Below, piece after piece: positions 21,554-64,000 of a stretch of DNA of 64,000 bases (position 1 is its first letter; every line of letters begins with the position of its first letter). The DNA is taken from NCBI GenBank assembly GCA_963707025.1, contig CAVPOM010000007.1, forward strand, positions 352,001 through 416,000, read 5' to 3'. This DNA is from an uncultured Verrucomicrobiae bacterium. GTDB taxonomy: Bacteria; Verrucomicrobiota; Verrucomicrobiia; Limisphaerales; Palsa-1400. A model generated the notes under the pieces. It was given only the letters and a program-made list of their open reading frames with translations. It was not told where the DNA came from and searched no databases. The position numbers were made by a program, and so were the translations under genes.

Positions 21554-22753
21554 ATGAAACTTGAATTTGACCCGATTGAATCGGTGGTGGCCGAGTTGCG
21601 CCGGGGACGGATGGTGGTGGTGGTGGACGATGCCGATCGGGAGAACGAAGGGGACCTGATCATGGCGGCCGAATGCGTCACCCCGGCGGCGGTCAATTTC
21701 ATGGCCAAGCACGGGCGCGGTCTCATCTGTGTGCCCACCACTTACGAACGGCTCAAGCAGTTGGGCATCGAACAAATGGTCACGCAGAGCGCGGACAATT
21801 TCCGCACCGATTTCCAGGTCAGCGTGGACGCGGCCCAGGGCATCGCCACGGGCATCAGCGCGGCGGACCGGGCCAGGACCATCAAGGTCATGGCCAACCC
21901 GACGGCCGTGCCGGACGATTTGGCCCAGCCCGGCCATGTCTTTCCGCTGCGGGCCAAGCCGGGCGGGGTGCTGCAACGGGCCGGCCACACCGAAGCGACA
22001 GTGGATCTGGTCAAGCTGGCGGGAGCGCGGCCCATGGGGGTGTGTTGCGAGATCATGAGCGATGACGGCTCCATGGCCCGATTGCCCGAATTGAAACGAT
22101 TTGCCCGCGCCCACAAACTCAAGATTTGCACGGTCGAAGACCTCATCCATTACCGCCGGGCGCGGGAGAAACTGGTGCAGCACCTGGAAGTGGTGAAGAT
22201 GCCGACCGCCTACGGAGACTTTGAATTGCATCTTTATGTTTCCCAGACCGACGGCCAGCATCACCTGGCGCTGGTCTGCGGCCAGGTGGCGGGGAAGAAA
22301 AATGTCCTGGTGCGGGTGCATAGCGAATGTCTGACCGGGGATGTCTTCGGCTCGCGGCGCTGTGATTGCGGGCCGCAACTCCACCAGGCCATGCGGCAGA
22401 TCGCGGAGGCGGGGCGCGGGGTCATTGTCTATATGCGGCAAGAGGGCCGGGGCATTGGCCTGCCCTCCAAGATCAAGGCTTACAAGTTGCAGGAGCGCGG
22501 CTACGACACGGTGGAGGCCAATCTCAAACTGGGCTACGGCAAGGACTTGCGCGAGTATGGATTGGGGGCGCAAATCCTGGTGGATCTGGGGTTGAAAACC
22601 ATCTGCCTGCTGACCAACAATCCCAAAAAAGTCGTCGGCCTGGAAGGTTACGGCCTGGAAATCGTCAAGCAGCTTCCCATCAAGGCCGGCGCCAACCGCC
22701 ATAACCGAAAATATCTCCGCACCAAGCGGGACAAGCTGGGGCATCTCCTGTGA
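21554..22753 (+). CDS. ribBA: Bifunctional DHBP synthase / GTP cyclohydrolase II
   Basis: [43 protein letters not shown]. Confidence 0.97.
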
Positions 22754-24264: not shown

Positions 24265-24582
24265 TCACTCAACCTGGAGCCGCGCCTGCAACGCCGCCCG
24301 GGTCAATTGTCCGGCGGTTTCACTCCGCCGCCGGCGGTAATTCTCCAACTGACCCTCCATTTGGCCGTCCAACTCGGTCTTGTGGTCGTGGTAATAGGAC
24401 AAGGCCGCGTGGAGCTGGGCCAGCGAGAGATGAGGATGGGCCGCGTGCATTTCCTCCGCGTCCCAGTCGTATGCGGCGTGGTCCATGGCGACTTCAATCA
24501 CCTTCACATTGCTGTCCGCGATCCAGGCCACTCCGCGCTCGTCCAGCCGGATATGGGTAATGGGTTCAACGACTAACATCAT
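24265..24582 (-). CDS. DUF433 antitoxin; partner DUF5615-like PIN reduced to MSVALYMD* (24242-24268)
   Basis: HPHLSLAQLHAALSYYHDH; overlapping GTG start of the truncated partner. Confidence 0.8.
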   Translation of the reverse strand: MMLVVEPITHIRLDERGVAWIADSNVKVIEVAMDHAAYDWDAEEMHAAHPHLSLAQLHAALSYYHDHKTELDGQMEGQLENYRRRRSETAGQLTRAALQARLQVE

Positions 24583-24722
24583 CCCATTGTAGCCGCTTTC
24601 CCATGGCTGGCAAGCGATTGTGCGGCAGTTGAAACAGCCGGGCGCATCCATCTTTGCCTCCCAAAACAACCGCGGAGAACACAGCGCGGCCGGCCGCCCC
24701 GCCAAAATCCCGGAACTTTCCG

Positions 24723-24751
24723 TTGACAGGTTCTGACTTAACCACTACTAT
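24723..24751 (+). promoter_or_regulatory. Sigma-70-type promoter upstream of intron copy 1
   Basis: TTGACA-17 nt-TACTAT. Confidence 0.55.
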
Positions 24752-25016
24752 TCGCTCAGTGATGACGGATCGCGCAAAGGGCGGGCGATGCGGCACGGCA
24801 GTTGGCCGCGCCCCCACCATCACTCCATCACTCCATCACTCCAGAATCCTTCAATACTCTACCAACTTACTGTACTTTATGATTCCCTGCGCATTCCCTG
24901 TCCTCCGCAGCTTTCAGCGAAGGAGAATGAGCCTTTCTGTGGAGAACCGTTCCAAGATACTGTCCATGAACAATTTACATATAATACGGAGCTTCCAAGG
25001 TCAAACCAGGTCAAAC

Positions 25017-26974
25017 GTTGCGCCAGTGAAGTTGGTTGGAACGCGGGTGAAAGTCCCGCCCGTCGAATTAGGCTGTTCACGACGGAACACGACCTCAACA
25101 GCGCCGCCGCGAGGCGGGGTTGGAAGCTGAGGGAGATGAACAGACGGGCCGTAATGAAAATGAACCACATCCAATGAGCCTCGATAAGTTTAGAACCGGA
25201 GACAAGCCGAGCCGCTGTTTGACCGGCGAAGGCCGCAGGGAGGAGGCAGGGCAACAGTCAGAGCCTTCTCAACGCTCCGGCGGGGTCGGCGTGGACGGCA
25301 CGTCTGGAAGTTCAACCAAGGTAAGCTGGGAGAACTCCGGCGGCGGGCGGCCAGCCCAACCGCCCGCGCAAGCTGGCAAGACCAGTCAGGCGAGCGGCCC
25401 TGCCGGAGAAGTCGGAGTTCCTCATAGTAGCGTGGACTTGTTTGCGCTCCAGGCGGATTTCCGCCGGGAGTTGCGCGAGCGAACGCAAAGGGGGAACACT
25501 TGCTCAATGCGTGGAGGCGAAGCGAAGGATGCGGGGATGGCCGGGGCGACCCGGATAGCAACCCCGGAGAAAGTTCGGCAGCTTCAAATCGCGCTCTATC
25601 GGAAAGCCAAAGCAGAGCCGAAGTATCGGTTCTGGAGCCTGTATGGGGAATTGCTGCGCAAGGACGTGCTCGAAACCGCCTTGGCAGCGCAACAGCGCAA
25701 CGGCGGGGCCGCGGGAGTGGACGGACAGAGTATGGAGTCCATCACCGCCGACCCGGCCCTGCGCCAGCAATGGCTCGACCGCCTGCAAGCAGAACTCAAA
25801 GCCAAGACGTATCGGGCCAGCCCGGTGCGGCGGGTGATGATTCCCAAGAGCAGCGGAGGGGAACGGCCGTTGGGCATCCCGACGGTCAAGGACCGGGTGG
25901 TGCAAACGGCGGTGTATCTGGTGCTGATGCCGATCTTGGAGGCGGACTTTCATCCGCGCTCCTACGGCTTTCGGCCCAAACGCCGGGCACACCAAGCCAT
26001 TGCGGAAATCCAACAAGCAGTGCAGCAAGGCTACGTGGAAATCATCAACGCGGACCTGACGAAATATTTCGACACGATTCCGCACCGGGAACTGATGAAG
26101 GCCGTGGCCCGGCGGGTCAGCGACGGCAGCGTGCTGCGGCTCCTCAAGAGCTGGCTGCGCGCCCCGGTCGCGGAGGAAGACCAGGACGGCACCAAGCGAG
26201 TGATCCCCAACCGGCGCGGCACGCCGCAAGGCGGGGTCATCTCGCCGCTGCTGGCCAACCTCTACCTCAACCCGCTGGATCACGGGGTGAACGAGAAAAC
26301 CTCCGGCCAAGCCCGCATGGTGCGCTACGCCGATGACTTTGTCATCGCGTGCGCGGCGGGGTGCGGCGGAGGGCTGATAGCGCGGCTCAAGAAATGGCTT
26401 CGAGCCAAAGGGCTGACCCTCAACGAAGTCAAAACCCGAATTGTGAACATTCGCAAGGAAGGGATCAACTTCCTGGGCTTCAACCTGACCTGGCGCAAGT
26501 CCTTTGGAGGGCGCGGCTACCTGCACGTTCAACCCAGCCAGAAAAGCCGGGGGCCCTGCGCGAGAAACTGGGCGGCATCCTCAACCACTGGACGCAGGGG
26601 CGTCCGATACAGGAGGTGGTCAAAGAGGTCAACCAAGTCTTGCGCGGATGGGCGGGCTACTTCCACTACGGCAACAGCGTCTCGGTGATGAACCGGATGA
26701 AACACTACAGCCAAAACCGCTTTCGGCGCTGGCTGTGGCGCAAACACGGTTGCCGCCGCAGCCTGTGGGAACACTACGTTCCCGAGCAGTTGCACCAGCG
26801 TTATGGACTCTATGAACTGCCGACCACGGCGAAGTGGAAGGCGGCCCGATGAATGAGTTCGGAGAGCCGAATATGGGAAATCCGTCCGTTCGGTTCGATG
26901 AGGGGCGAAGTGGCAGCGCGAGACTGACAACTGCGGTCAGTTCAATCCGCCTCCTTCCACTTCGCCTACTCTAC
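25017..26974 (+). mobile_element. Group II intron, copy 1
   Basis: Domain V GAGCCGAATATGGGAAATCCGTCCGTTCGGTTC, domain VI ending CTACTCTAC, EBS1 loop GTTTGAC (25217-25223) complementary to the upstream exon GTCAAAC. Confidence 0.92.
25537..26852 (+). CDS. ltrA: Group II intron reverse transcriptase/maturase without endonuclease domain; frameshift in G-run 26549-26553
   Basis: RPLGIPTVKDR, SYGFRP, GTPQGGVISPLLAN, RYADD, FLGF; X domain (LRGWAGYF) continues in another frame. Confidence 0.93.
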
Positions 26975-27285
26975 CAGGTCAAACCATATTCATGAACCTT
27001 GACCATCCCCAACACCCCAAGACGGAAAAGCTCAGTTACTCTATCATTTTACTATAGATTAAGTGTCTCGTGCGGCAAACCAGCTCCCAATTCCCGGTTA
27101 ATCTCATTTCTGACATGACCCAAAATCCGGCCCTCTTTCTGGCGCTGCCGGACGGGAAAGGCAGGGTCCCGGCCCGCCGGGACTGCCCGCCGCCGGACAT
27201 TGGCAGAAGAAGCAACGTCGTGCTGCGGTCGCGCAATTTTCGGGGATGGTTGTTTCCCGCGCCTTGTTTACGGCTAACGATTGGT

Positions 27286-28451
27286 TTAGGCAGGCGGCGG
27301 CAGGACTGGGCTTTGCGGCGGCAGCCCATAGGCGGCGCGGGTTGGGGCAAACGCCTTGATGAATTCCGGATCGCTCAAGCTGTAGGAACGCGGATCATCG
27401 AACAAGGCCTGCACCGCGTCGGAGTGCCTGAGGTTGCCGCTGTCGCTGGCCCAAGTCATCCACCAGCACCATTTGGGCTGCTGGGCCAGGACAGCCAGCG
27501 TCGGGGGCGGCCCCACTTCGGCCAGGGTGATGGGCTTGCCGTTGGCCAGCTTGAGCAAGTCCTCGTAGAAAGACTGTTTGAAGTCGCTGCCATAGACATC
27601 CAAGGCGGCAATATCAACGTACTGAGAGCCGGGAAAACATTCGGCGAACTGCAAGGAGGGCGGGTTGGCCCTGTCAACACTCCAAATCCAGATGAGATTG
27701 TTGAGTTTGTGGTGATTGACCAGCCGGTCGTAGATTTGGATGTACAGGTCTTTGGTTCCCTTGATGCCCTTTGCCGGGTCGGCCCGGCGTCCGCCCCGCC
27801 AAAACCATTGGCCGTTCATTTCATGGTAGGGCCGCCACAACACCGGGATGTGCGCGTCCTGAAGCTGTTTGAGGAAACCGGCGATGACGTCCACCTGGGC
27901 GCACCAATGCTGGAACAGATCGGTCCCGGGCGTCGTCACATCCTGCCACTGCGCATCGGTCAGCCGGCCCTGCACACTGGCGAGCAGCGGGGCCGGCCCG
28001 CCTCCGCGTTGGTGGCGGCGGCGGCGCGTCCGCGTCTGGGCGGTTGGAAGGTCACCGGTTCATCGGCGGTTGGAGGCACGGCGTGCCAGCACAGGGCGAT
28101 GATCGAGCCATTGGCAAACTGCCGTTTGACCTCGGCGATCATGTCGGGCCGGGAGGTGTAGGCGTCTTTTCGGCCGGGAGAGTCGAATCCGAAATCCTGG
28201 CCAAAGATGACCGGGACTTTATGGTAGGCGCGGGCGGCGCCTTGGGTGGAGGCGTCCTTGGTGGCCGGGAAGTTGTGCTGGCCGGTCAGGATGTGGTTGC
28301 CGGATATGCTGTAGATAAAGTTGAGGAGGGCCCGGGCTTCCGGGGTGGCGTTTGGATTGACGGGCGGCAGGGGAGCATCGGACCCGCGGGCCAGGGTTGC
28401 GGCGCAGAGCGCGGCCGCCAAAAGCCAGGATGGGGTGCCATTAAGTTTCAC
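27286..28451 (-). CDS. GH26 beta-mannanase-like protein, frameshift near 27990
   Basis: PVNPNATPEARALL..ILTGQH; VLWRPYHEMNGQWFW; LAEVG. Confidence 0.85.
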
Positions 28452-28777
28452 AGCCTGAATTTCCTTTTTGCGGTGAAGGCGGAAGGATGCGGCGTTTTGT
28501 TGTCTGCCAGGCCTGGCCGCTCCCGGCAACAGACATCGGACAACTTGTCGCTTATAGGAAAACCAGCCCCAGATCTATGTGGGGATTCGAGGCATTTGGC
28601 GCAGGGGTCAGGCACGGCAGCAGCCTGTTGCGCCACGATAAGAATGTCAATTGACAAACAGGAAACGACCCGTGACGCCGGGATCATCGGTCCATTGGCC
28701 ATCCACGACGAAGCGGAATTCGCACCTGCCAGGCCTGAGCGCCAAGTCCAGCAGCCAGCGCCCCCTTGCGCAAGGCT

Positions 28778-59313: not shown

Positions 59314-59514
59314 GGCAGTGATGGAGTCGTGCAAGGGTCGTCTCTGTCAATGAAAGATTTTGGCATGGGTCGTGCCAAAGCCCGGCCGCCACCGCAAATT
59401 TTTTTGGAAAAATCGCTTGAATTATTTTTGGTTTTGGCGATAATAAGATCAAGCCAGCCGTCCGGCGGAGACCGGAGCGCGCCTTTGTTCTTTGGAATTA
59501 TTGGCAACGGTTTT

Positions 59515-59691
59515 ACCCTGCCATGCTCGTGATTAAAAACAAAGTCCTTGAACCTTAAATTAGTCAACCCGGAACCCTGATCTCGGTTGTGGCCGACAGG
59601 CCTTAACTGGAAGCCGAAAGCAATCGTCCCGGTTCCATCCTGTTCCTAACAAGTTCAGAGGCACTGTTTATACACGGCATTACGGCGGGGT
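59515..59691 (+). ncRNA. ssrS: 6S RNA
   Basis: ~177-nt rod: closing stem ACCCTGCC..ATGC..CGTG / CACG..GCAT..GGCGGGGT, A-rich central bubble, CCTTGAAC / GTTCAGAGG inner stem, followed by a T-run. Confidence 0.75.
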
Positions 59692-59802
59692 TATTTTTTG
59701 CGCGCATGGCCGGATTCTAGGTCGTGTTTCAATCGCCTGGCCAATGTTCCACAGGTCGTGAACGCCTCTTGCGGGTTTGTCCCTGCACAAGTAATCTTTC
59801 CA

Positions 59803-61366: not shown

Positions 61367-62181
61367 GGCACTGTTTTCCGCTTTAAAATCCGGCGGTTTC
61401 GCCTCTCCTCTGGTTTGTCTGAATTCACTCGCGCCGTTATCGGCATTTTGTGGCCGCGGCTTAATGCTCAATCTTCCCGCCATCATTAACAAAAGCCGTT
61501 GTGCTAAAGGGAACGCCGGGGATTCGAAAAAGAGCGCAAGTATTGTATGGAGAATGACAAGAAATGCCTCGTCAAAGCGGCAAAACCATAGTTTCGCCCC
61601 ATTGCAAGTGCAAATGATTGCGCTGCAAGCGCTTGAAACCTTTCTTCCCTCTCTGTTGTCTCAGTTGCCTCCTGTTGAACCCCCTTCTTCATTCCCTGTC
61701 CTCCGTAGGCCAGGAGGATGCATTTTTCTTCCAACCGGAGCTTGACAAAAGTTAGAACCTATGGTTAAATCGTCAGAGTGAGAAACGTAGGCTCAGTCCA
61801 AACCACATCCGGGAGAAGGCGGCCAGCCCAGGCGCGGAGGGCGGGGATATGAAAATGCAAAATGCAGAATTCCAAATCCGTGAAATCCGCGAAACCTGTG
61901 GTTCAATTCCTTTGGTCCCGGCTGGCCGCTCAACCTGGCAAACCATGGCCAATTCGCGGTGTTGCCGCAACCCAGCGGCGGGCGATTCAACCGTCGCCTC
62001 CAAAAGGACCTGGCACGGTCGAATCGTGCCAAGCGGACCCATCCGGTCAAACCGGTCAAACCGGTCAAACCCAACGCTGTCCAGTAAAGTGAGGGATAAA
62101 AATGTGGAAGACCCTCACCTGCAAGGTGTTGCTGAGCCATTTGGATGTGATCGAAGCAGAGGCGGTCAAACCAGGTCAAAC

Positions 62182-64000
62182 GTTGCGCCAGTGAAGTTGG
62201 TTGGAACGCGGGTGAAAGTCCCGCCCGTCGAATTAGGCTGTTCACGACGGAACACGACCTCAACAGCGCCGCCGCGAGGCGGGGTTGGAAGCTGAGGGAG
62301 ATGAACAGACGGGCCGTAATGAAAATGAACCACATCCAATGAGCCTCGATAAGTTTAGAACCGGAGACAAGCCGAGCCGCTGTTTGACCGGCGAAGGCCG
62401 CAGGGAGGAGGCAGGGCAACAGTCAGAGCCTTCTCAACGCTCCGGCGGGGTCGGCGTGGACGGCACGTCTGGAAGTTCAACCAAGGTAAGCTGGGAGAAC
62501 TCCGGCGGCGGGCGGCCAGCCCAACCGCCCGCGCAAGCTGGCAAGACCAGTCAGGCGAGCGGCCCTGCCGGAGAAGTCGGAGTTCCTCATAGTAGCGTGG
62601 ACTTGTTTGCGCTCCAGGCGGATTTCCGCCGGGAGTTGCGCGAGCGAACGCAAAGGGGGAACACTTGCTCAATGCGTGGAGGCGAAGCGAAGGATGCGGG
62701 GATGGCCGGGGCGACCCGGATAGCAACCCCGGAGAAAGTTCGGCAGCTTCAAATCGCGCTCTATCGGAAAGCCAAAGCAGAGCCGAAGTATCGGTTCTGG
62801 AGCCTGTATGGGGAATTGCTGCGCAAGGACGTGCTCGAAACCGCCTTGGCAGCGCAACAGCGCAACGGCGGGGCCGCGGGAGTGGACGGACAGAGTATGG
62901 AGTCCATCACCGCCGACCCGGCCCTGCGCCAGCAATGGCTCGACCGCCTGCAAGCAGAACTCAAAGCCAAGACGTATCGGGCCAGCCCGGTGCGGCGGGT
63001 GATGATTCCCAAGAGCAGCGGAGGGGAACGGCCGTTGGGCATCCCGACGGTCAAGGACCGGGTGGTGCAAACGGCGGTGTATCTGGTGCTGATGCCGATC
63101 TTGGAGGCGGACTTTCATCCGCGCTCCTACGGCTTTCGGCCCAAACGCCGGGCACACCAAGCCATTGCGGAAATCCAACAAGCAGTGCAGCAAGGCTACG
63201 TGGAAATCATCAACGCGGACCTGACGAAATATTTCGACACGATTCCGCACCGGGAACTGATGAAGGCCGTGGCCCGGCGGGTCAGCGACGGCAGCGTGCT
63301 GCGGCTCCTCAAGAGCTGGCTGCGCGCCCCGGTCGCGGAGGAAGACCAGGACGGCACCAAGCGAGTGATCCCCAACCGGCGCGGCACGCCGCAAGGCGGG
63401 GTCATCTCGCCGCTGCTGGCCAACCTCTACCTCAACCCGCTGGATCACGGGGTGAACGAGAAAACCTCCGGCCAAGCCCGCATGGTGCGCTACGCCGATG
63501 ACTTTGTCATCGCGTGCGCGGCGGGGTGCGGCGGAGGGCTGATAGCGCGGCTCAAGAAATGGCTTCGAGCCAAAGGGCTGACCCTCAACGAAGTCAAAAC
63601 CCGAATTGTGAACATTCGCAAGGAAGGGATCAACTTCCTGGGCTTCAACCTGACCTGGCGCAAGTCCTTTGGAGGGCGCGGCTACCTGCACGTTCAACCC
63701 AGCCAGAAAAGCCGGGGGCCCTGCGCGAGAAACTGGGCGGCATCCTCAACCACTGGACGCAGGGGCGTCCGATACAGGAGGTGGTCAAAGAGGTCAACCA
63801 AGTCTTGCGCGGATGGGCGGGCTACTTCCACTACGGCAACAGCGTCTCGGTGATGAACCGGATGAAACACTACAGCCAAAACCGCTTTCGGCGCTGGCTG
63901 TGGCGCAAACACGGTTGCCGCCGCAGCCTGTGGGAACACTACGTTCCCGAGCAGTTGCACCAGCGTTATGGACTCTATGAACTGCCGACCACGGCGAAGT
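62182..64000 (+). mobile_element. Group II intron, copy 2 (runs off the window)
   Basis: Appears identical to 25017 onward at offset +37165; ORF translations match. Confidence 0.92.
62702..64000 (+). CDS. ltrA: Group II intron RT/maturase, copy 2, same frameshift (63714-63718)
   Basis: Same translation as copy 1. Confidence 0.92.

Follow-up and report, generated by a model that had tools for sequence, protein, structure and literature searches.

The window analysed here is a stretch of 64,000 nucleotides (nt) from contig CAVPOM010000007.1 of an uncultured Verrucomicrobiae bacterium (assembly GCA_963707025.1). It includes two copies of a group II intron, the second cut by the window end, both inserted into a tandem repeat with a 10-nt period and both encoding a reverse transcriptase (RT)/maturase in an open reading frame (ORF) of the intron (Table 1). 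The predicted exon-binding sites (EBS) of the intron pair with intron-binding sites (IBS) lying in the repeat, and the data below make it highly probable that EBS1 and EBS2 together guide homing into consecutive repeat units.

Intron copies, boundaries and structure

A search of the genome (6.96 Mb, 18 contigs) identified 16 full-length copies of the intron with identities of 99.8-100%, besides one partial match of 66% which represents another RT. Because any two of the 16 copies are at most five substitutions apart, their near-identity indicates a burst that would be recent. Copies 1 and 2 had been predicted to be identical, and they are so across the 1819 nt of copy 2 inside the window and across all 1958 nt in the genome.

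Also the shared 18 nt preceding both copies, GGTCAAACCAGGTCAAAC, was found as originally noticed. All 16 copies start with GTTGCG and end with CTACTCTAC; the base 5' of the intron is C in 15 copies and T in one, while the base on the 3' side (+1) is C in all 16. The span first given for copy 1, 24997..26985, was corrected to 25017-26974. The end of copy 1 is followed by CAGGTCAAACC, and in-silico removal of the intron leaves three 10-nt units, agreeing with the earlier proposal that excision restores the array. Empty sites in the genome read GTCAAAC|C without the G. Since the empty sites lack this G, the -1 base tracks the first EBS1 base and the +1 base tracks EBS3, the 18 nt belong to the exon and the intron starts with GUUGCG. 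A boundary at TTGCG with the G in the exon was rejected because of the empty sites and the covariation of -1 with EBS1. Membership of the 18 nt in the intron, an outcome against the original prediction, was likewise rejected, as the 18 nt vary among the copies, are present at empty sites and covary with the EBS loops in relatives.

The 5' end deviates from the group II pattern GUGYG: GUUGCG was present in 16/16 own copies and in 73/73 accepted ends of relatives among the matches listed, the search pattern having TTGCG fixed and the first G alone free. Ni.ha.I1 and the sister clade start with GUGCG, which is shorter by one base. Because exceptions to GUGYG are already known (PMC4424553), GUUGCG is taken as a variant marker and not as exclusion from group II. 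A literature search for the motif returned unrelated papers only.

The hallmarks of group II introns are present, including the domain I core, a catalytic domain V (DV), a bulged A in domain VI (DVI) and a 3' AY end (here AC). The EBS1, EBS2 and EBS3-IBS3 pairings, supported by covariation, correspond to structural class IIB. The alpha' at the tip of the DId3 stem-loop and the 5-nt DV loop are features of IIF RNAs that were found here, and they are common to IIE and IIF (PMC3753933). The EBS1 hairpin GCCG-CTGTTTGAC-CGGC, predicted to pair with GTCAAAC, was located at 25211-25227 with covariation in 7/7 pairs. EBS1 pairs with one repeat unit (-7..-1) and EBS2 with the preceding unit, 10 nt further upstream; the +1 base is read by EBS3. 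The EBS1 and EBS2 loops have almost the same sequence, and their offset equals the repeat period of 10 nt. EBS2 and EBS3 were absent from the original prediction, and they explain the need for a tandem of exactly 10 nt.

The RT ORF lies in domain IV and is intact at 438 aa in 7/16 copies. In the other 9/16, including both window copies, a G run is one base short and the ORF ends at 383 aa. Both of the public runs (of four) covering position 26548 gave short-read contigs (X1 and X3) with the extra G, and because of this the frameshift is probably an assembly error. Pfam detected RVT_1 and GIIM and nothing else, thus no endonuclease domain, in the two ORF pieces of the window copy.

The contigs of the four public runs included no spliced or empty-allele junction exactly spanning the intron, and RNA run X20 gave diverged relatives only and no evidence of intron expression. 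Mobility is inferred from the 16 near-identical copies together with a filled and an empty version of one locus. In the latter, a homologous stretch of 387 nt (89% identity) is empty in genome G000 and filled at the same junction in locus L187 by a 691-nt ORF-less derivative.

Table 1. Features of the intron copies and their flanks in the window.
Feature	Position	Strand	Basis
Putative sigma70-like promoter TTGACA-17-TACTAT, facing the insertion site	24723..24751	+	10/12 consensus matches (consensus match alone)
5' exon of copy 1: two 10-nt-period repeat units; IBS2 25000-25006, IBS1 25010-25016	24999..25016	+	
Group II intron copy 1, 1958 nt, GTTGCG start, CTACTCTAC end	25017..26974	+	Rfam RF02005 25050-25295, RF00029 26862-26974; 16 genomic copies; EBS1/EBS3 covariation
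alpha 25071-77 / alpha' 25253-59, alpha' occupying, as in IIE/IIF, a stem-loop tip downstream of the EBS1 hairpin	25071..25259	+	99.5% of cells paired, 2/7 pairs changed on both sides; fold
delta U / delta' A, putative pairing	25216 / 25177	+	
EBS2: GTTT (25188-91) pairs with -14..-11, then unpaired A; GA may pair with -15/-16	25188..25194	+	register scan; 4/6 pairs changed on both sides
EBS1 GTTTGAC, in loop of stem 25211-14/25224-27	25217..25223	+	7/7 pairs changed on both sides, 92.6% of cells paired
EBS3 (G), pairs with +1 C	25288..25288	+	covariation of +1 in relatives
RT/maturase ORF, YADD, 438 aa in 7/16 copies; here frameshifted at G run 26548	25537..26852	+	Pfam RVT_1 + GIIM
Domain V, AGC triad, 5-nt terminal loop	26864..26896	+	
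Domain VI, bulged A 26968	26900..26971	+	fold z = -4.1; bulge in minimum free energy and centroid structures
3' exon of copy 1: IBS3 (C 26975), third repeat unit, AT-rich tract, AACCTTGACC motif of the repeat family	26975..27004	+	
Promoter-like module TTGAC..AGTGAG, some 400 nt 5' of copy 2	61744..61782	+	pattern match
Empty 9-nt-period array (CCGGTCAAA)n, same family, out of EBS2 register	62043..62071	+	0/23 9-period sites occupied
5' exon of copy 2, same 18 nt as copy 1	62164..62181	+	
Group II intron copy 2, cut by window end, complete in genome	62182..64000	+	Rfam domain I 62215-62460; window/genome comparison

Target sites and the repeat family

After in-silico removal of the 16 introns the genome includes 535 GTCAAAC|C sites. 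Those with GTCAAA exactly 10 nt upstream (GTCAAA-N4-GTCAAAC|C) were occupied in 14/41 cases, compared to 1/494 of the remaining sites (p = 3e-16) and to 0/23 of the sites with a 9-nt period (p = 0.001). Because the frequencies of the two half-motifs predict 0.18 such sites per spacing and 41 were seen, the tandem arrangement is, judged by these frequencies, not due to chance. The difference in occupancy was present also among intergenic sites alone (11/38 of the 10-period sites vs 0/170) and among family-like sites with the downstream TGACY motif alone (8/26 vs 0/22, p = 0.005). The 22 unused family-like sites include upstream units mismatching EBS2, such as GTCACAC, GTCAAGC and GTCATAC.

Fourteen of the 16 own copies are situated at a 10-nt-period GTCAAAC tandem and a 15th in a different 10-mer array, which pairs with the same loops in another phase. 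Homing to an intergenic tandem repeat, the core of the original prediction, thus held, and the other copies did not turn out to lack the repeat. The exact target (CAGGTCAAAC)n was too narrow: the 10-nt tandem stood, but with a degenerate unit, and only 4/16 insertions are at the exact CAGGTCAAAC|C (4/15 such sites occupied). The array at 62043-62071, earlier described as a related repeat left empty, is real and unoccupied, but its 9-nt period does not match the target. Other 10-mer variants in the genome were empty as well (TCAAGC, TCAAGG and TCGTGC with 9, 22 and 4 pattern sites, respectively).

According to a crude codon-usage gene caller, 12/16 insertions and 38/41 sites are intergenic. Two of the four 'coding' insertions represent one event, both being situated where a duplicated 216-aa gene has its low-complexity tail, and because these two count once the number of independent insertion sites is about 15. 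The two copies of this gene (L131:463-1500 and L138:529-1500) are identical over the first 216 aa, the low-complexity tail running into the repeat and the intron, and the product has no Pfam match. Their downstream flanks differ, which suggests recombination between intron copies or mis-assembly. A connection of the repeat to one upstream gene family was rejected, since it concerned 2/16 own copies and two loci of relatives (49 accepted ends with at least 1 kb of upstream DNA). Neither was targeting of the attC or terminator type supported; no terminator-like site was present on the + strand in 24550-25050, the region covered for copy 1 only.

The 10-nt tandem pattern was found in 15/30 genomes of the host family vs 0/30 genomes from other families of the order. 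In genome G023 (95% complete) 34 sites were counted and the intron had no DNA match, a result to be read knowing that multi-copy elements can drop out of assemblies. In G025 the pattern matched 218 times, far above every other genome searched. The repeat unit is one module in mosaic tracts holding also 7-, 8- and other 10-mers. The target is hence not the free-standing simple repeat first assumed, but a degenerate module of 2-4 units within a larger promoter-linked mosaic repeat family. The flanks of the two window copies had been called unrelated; they have no common BLAST match of at least 50 nt, but both belong to this one family, with a promoter-like module upstream and AACCTTGACC downstream.

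A promoter-like pattern (TTGAC-N17-19-TANNNT within 700 nt upstream, same strand) was present in sense orientation at 11/16 occupied and 20/27 empty sites and at 53/2000 random intergenic positions. In antisense orientation it was found within 700 nt at 0/16 occupied and 0/27 empty sites. The strict pattern derived from G000 gave one sense and one antisense match in the 51 loci of relatives, and the looser one was applied to G000 only, the promoter link being a G000 result; in L187 a promoter-like motif was recognized by eye. Both genes flanking copy 1 are on the minus strand, opposite to the promoter-like motif. The module TTGAC..AGTGA[TG] (window 24723-24770 and 61744-61790) has 51 pattern matches in the genome and heads mosaic intergenic tracts of 7-, 8- and 10-nt repeats. 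These promoter-headed tracts are possibly an undescribed transcribed repeat family.

Elsewhere in the window, a 6S RNA gene is located at 59512-59695 (+). A GH26 glycoside hydrolase gene at 27286-28529 (-) is split across two frames, possibly by a further assembly frameshift. A V_AS9 Rfam match at 21657-21760 (-) overlaps a long ORF and probably reflects just coding-sequence similarity.

Guide loops and targets in relatives

Relatives were collected from 60 related genomes, the GTDB collection and one metagenome scan. They included at least 125 matches to the 5' pattern, of which at least 73 qualified as intron ends since their similarity extended beyond the pattern. The accepted rows include near-duplicates originating from related samples, and a few rejected rows, L114 and L147 among them, may be truncated true ends. 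When flanks were counted as 10-periodic if -7..-1 agreed at 5/7 or more positions with the heptamer located 10 nt further upstream, 47/69 accepted ends with enough flank vs 2/52 rejected matches were so among the matches listed, and any other shift from 7 to 14 gave at most 4/69. In the repeat variants, GTCAAAC, ATCAAAC, ATCAAGG, GTCGCAC and ATCGTGC, the TC is invariant.

The loops could be read in 35 rows other than the own copies, and in these the four variable bases formed 120/140 Watson-Crick pairs at EBS1 (80 when shuffled) and 111/140 at EBS2 (70 when shuffled). The register scan of EBS2 showed a single peak at -11 with these 111 pairs, the runner-up having 57/140. Both results persisted after collapsing the rows to 12 EBS1 and 8 EBS2 loop types, and cognate loops and targets paired in 187/224 cases vs 142/224 when swapped. 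The named structure, evaluated with 28/35 rows and the window, was 93.5% paired, above all 500 shuffles and above every slid control (at most 45%); the seven rows left out were mostly near-duplicates, but L182 and the second L213 intron were also among them. The -1 base shifts with the first EBS1 base (8 cells changed on both sides). Of the 21 rows with both ends, 20 were paired between EBS3 and +1 (G-C 15, A-T 4, G-T 1), the remaining one being A-C. In a tree with the EBS masked, EBS2 types CTTT and GTGC each occurred in separate parts, with mostly matching targets and modest support.

Loci L035 and L191 retain the EBS pairing on non-repeat targets. Also a sister intron (L038-L042:966, five copies) with a canonical GTGCG start shows a similar geometry, inserted in terminal inverted repeats resembling those of miniature inverted-repeat transposable elements (MITE), and an 8-bp EBS2 match was seen by eye at three of the five copies. 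Because L035, L191 and this sister clade pair similarly on non-tandem targets, the EBS spacing would be older than the repeat habit, so that the derived step would be the matching of both loops to one unit.

Among the relatives, L191:2230 (-) is a close one with different EBS loops, inserted in the T-loop-like GGTTCGAGT|CC, and the flank of L218 is similar. A tRNA target for L191 was rejected as ARAGORN, run on 22 rebuilt sites, detected 0 genes. At L007, L028, L129, L154, L157, L161, L168 and L187 the intron is represented by ORF-less derivatives (about 680-690 nt), which have EBS variants of their own and are probably mobilised in trans. L213 holds a full-length and an ORF-less intron head-to-tail with exactly one 10-nt unit between them, and in L193 an intron start immediately follows an intron end.

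Interpretation and comparison with known systems

The reading favoured by these results is one of ordinary EBS-guided retrohoming, in which only the kind of target would be new. In it, an endonuclease-minus retroelement, group IIB-type and class F-like, has expanded recently and would home by ordinary RNA-DNA pairing, its ribozyme holding EBS1 at exon positions -7..-1 and EBS2 at about -16..-11, 10 nt apart. Because the near-same EBS1 and EBS2 loops read positions 10 nt apart, two consecutive units of the host repeat would form the full site, with EBS3 checking +1, and a period of exactly 10 nt would be required as EBS2 reads 10 nt upstream of the EBS1 site. The host family offers dozens of matching sites in mosaic, mostly intergenic tracts. 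As in RmInt1 and RmInt2 (PMC4615759), the ribonucleoprotein would reverse-splice into transiently single-stranded DNA, the RT being primed at the replication fork by the nascent strand. The upstream promoters would transcribe the inserted intron, splicing would restore the RNA of the repeat, and the lineage would be retuned to other repeat variants by point mutations of the loops. Insertions of this kind are presumably harmless.

Several observations weigh against this reading. Within the genome, 27/41 matching sites are empty, 1/16 own copies is inserted at a non-repeat site, which precedes the end of a 120-aa ORF (without a Pfam match) by about 29 nt, and the copy pair sharing the duplicated upstream gene is not independent. 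A lagging-strand bias could not be read from GC skew, which flips sign many times within contigs. Among the matches listed, 22/69 flanks of relatives were below the periodicity threshold, and L003, L035, L168, L191 and L205 are not tandem targets. The EBS2 cells were only 83% paired, the GA extension never changed on both sides, and the left-out L182 and second L213 intron pair poorly at EBS2. Furthermore, the rows are related and partly redundant, and the shuffle p-values overstate the significance.

The real target might instead be a larger mobile or transcribed host element composed of the promoter and the mosaic modules. The intron would then be a parasite of a parasite like RmInt2, with the context (transcription, a downstream hairpin, bases read by the RT) co-determining the site. 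The flanks indeed share further modules of 70-90% identity with many genomic sites, the sense-promoter bias is strong, a downstream TTGACC is able to pair with GGTCAA, and in the sister RT clade the targets are MITE-like terminal inverted repeats. However, within the family use is limited to sites with a matching unit 10 nt upstream (8/26 vs 0/22), one copy is in another 10-mer array without the downstream motif and one at a non-family site, and the promoter pattern is similarly frequent at empty and occupied sites. Nor were terminal repeats or a transposase identified for the mosaic tracts in a search that was not exhaustive. This explanation seems rather unlikely, and it is largely compatible with EBS-guided homing. 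It is clearly improbable that, in place of EBS2 pairing, a protein recognises the upstream unit, be it the one encoded by the intron or a repeat-binding one of the host: over 8 loop types and in one register only, the four variable bases of EBS2 covary with -14..-11, even if IIE/IIF introns can self-splice in vitro without the EBS2-IBS2 pairing (PMC3753933), the TC at -16/-15 is conserved without compensatory change and 10 nt is about one helical turn.

Co-occurrence of repeat and intron in the same host family, together with the head-to-tail introns of L213 one unit apart, could mean that the intron generated the repeats by target duplication or template switching and was later lost. Against this speak the 27/41 empty sites, the existence of 9-period and other untargeted variants, and G023 with its 34 sites and no intron match (to be read with the same caution about assembly), leaving very little probability for such an origin. 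The filled and empty alleles of L187 and G000 differ by one unit, which fits slippage and is also compatible with intron-made repeats. Finally, the copies could be segmental duplications or mis-assemblies of a long-read bin, as two of them share a 100% identical upstream gene and the homopolymer indels point to long-read errors. In all other flank pairs the similarity is limited to partial modules (72-95% identity), the same arrangement occurs in independent genomes and metagenome contigs, and one short-read contig spans the whole intron with a repeat flank; this explanation is largely refuted and can hardly be right.

EBS-guided homing may be part of a wider picture, put forward tentatively and somewhat more doubtful than probable. 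In it the lineage would be specialised on a promoter-driven, family-specific 10-nt repeat system, both loops having converged on one unit and the EBS1-EBS2 spacing serving as a ruler for the period. The loops would repeatedly retune as the variable tetramer changes, in a guide-target chase, the promoter of the host element would express the intron, and the one-nucleotide 5' extension would be spliced with branch point and EBS2 intact. If true, the intron would be a bacterial counterpart of repeat-specific retrotransposons and would expose an undescribed transcribed repeat system. The SART and TRAS non-long-terminal-repeat retrotransposons have their niche in telomeric short tandem repeats; they are eukaryotic and owe their specificity to a protein endonuclease, and the likeness is an analogy only. 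The data also indicate an uncharacterised promoter-linked mosaic repeat family in Verrucomicrobiota. The comparison of 10-nt and 9-nt periods is a clean natural control, and the natural variants of loops and targets are ready-made test constructs for a small endonuclease-minus intron with naturally retargeted guides of 7+4(+2)+1 nt and an unusual 5' end. In PMC3753933 the EBS2 of IIE/IIF introns is described as dispensable for self-splicing, with a role in homing proposed only. On this question, which that paper leaves open, occupancy and covariation are here genomic evidence suggesting a role of EBS2 in the homing of an F-like intron.

The intron is best described as class F-like, endonuclease-minus and IIB-type, the sequence comparisons falling short of proving membership in class F. 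In a quick tree of 74 RTs it belonged to a 15-row clade of Verrucomicrobiota and metagenome sequences with an SH-aLRT (Shimodaira-Hasegawa-like approximate likelihood ratio test) value of 100. This clade joined the F/g2/g3 references (Ni.ha.I1, A. caldus g3, B.th.I3) weakly (SH-aLRT 86) in a sampling with one class D and no class E or C reference. The nearest RT relatives, with 86-87% identity, are in Verrucomicrobiae, and identity to Ni.ha.I1 is 48%. The chloroplast-like class, to which we take the RTs of the TeI introns of Thermosynechococcus elongatus to belong, is unlike this lineage. The 438-aa ORF with RVT_1 and GIIM agrees with the absence of an endonuclease domain in class F. Variety g2, marked by FADD (PMC3552965), was rejected as the motif here is YADD, and class C/IIC was rejected as EBS2 covaries and no terminator-like site was found on the + strand in the region covered for copy 1.

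The class F/g2-g4 introns Ni.ha.I1 (class F/g3; PMC3552965, Table S2), D.a.I1, Ge.ur.I1 and Pe.th.I2 are alike in having an ORF with RT-X only of about 440 aa, an intron length of about 1.95 kb, alpha' at the stem-loop tip and a 5-nt DV loop (PMC3552965, PMC3753933). Our intron differs in its own Verrucomicrobiota clade, in GUUGCG in place of the GUGCG of Ni.ha.I1 and in the repeat target. The 5' boundary is displaced from GUGYG by extra nucleotide(s) also in fungal rRNA introns and C.te.I1, but these are reported to have lost EBS2 and the branch site (PMC4424553), whereas ours has a covarying EBS2 and a bulged A in DVI.

RmInt2 of Sinorhizobium meliloti, inserted in the inverted repeats of ISRm17, is likewise an endonuclease-minus IIB intron with EBS1/2/3 pairing and a multi-copy, non-essential target, and shares the tolerated EBS2 mismatches and head-to-tail copies (PMC4615759). 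It differs in belonging to class D and in targeting an insertion sequence (IS) end and not consecutive units of a short tandem repeat, and no lineage-wide tracking of repeat variants by the EBS was found in the parts of PMC4615759 consulted. The TeI introns resemble ours in high copy number, diverging target specificity, ORF-less derivatives and use of non-essential repeated DNA, but their targets are other introns and IS elements (PMC2882425), while ours diverges along variants of one 10-nt repeat family. RmInt2 and the TeI family are thus precedents for multi-copy niches, for divergence of targets and for derivatives without an ORF. Class C introns similarly use a dispersed intergenic motif, terminators or attC, as a niche of many sites (PMC4424553), but they read a hairpin motif and are without EBS2 (PMC3753933), whereas ours has three pairing elements including the covarying EBS2.

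In the open-access literature, searched by title and start of abstract (subscription papers and bioRxiv supplements being outside this scope), no account was found of the 10-nt repeat family, or of a group II intron in bacteria that reads successive units of a short tandem repeat. Among the three target specificities listed for group II introns, homing sites, terminators and attC (PMC4424553), our intron belongs to the first. The novelty would be in the nature of the site, by which short tandem repeats are added to the niches of bacterial group II introns.

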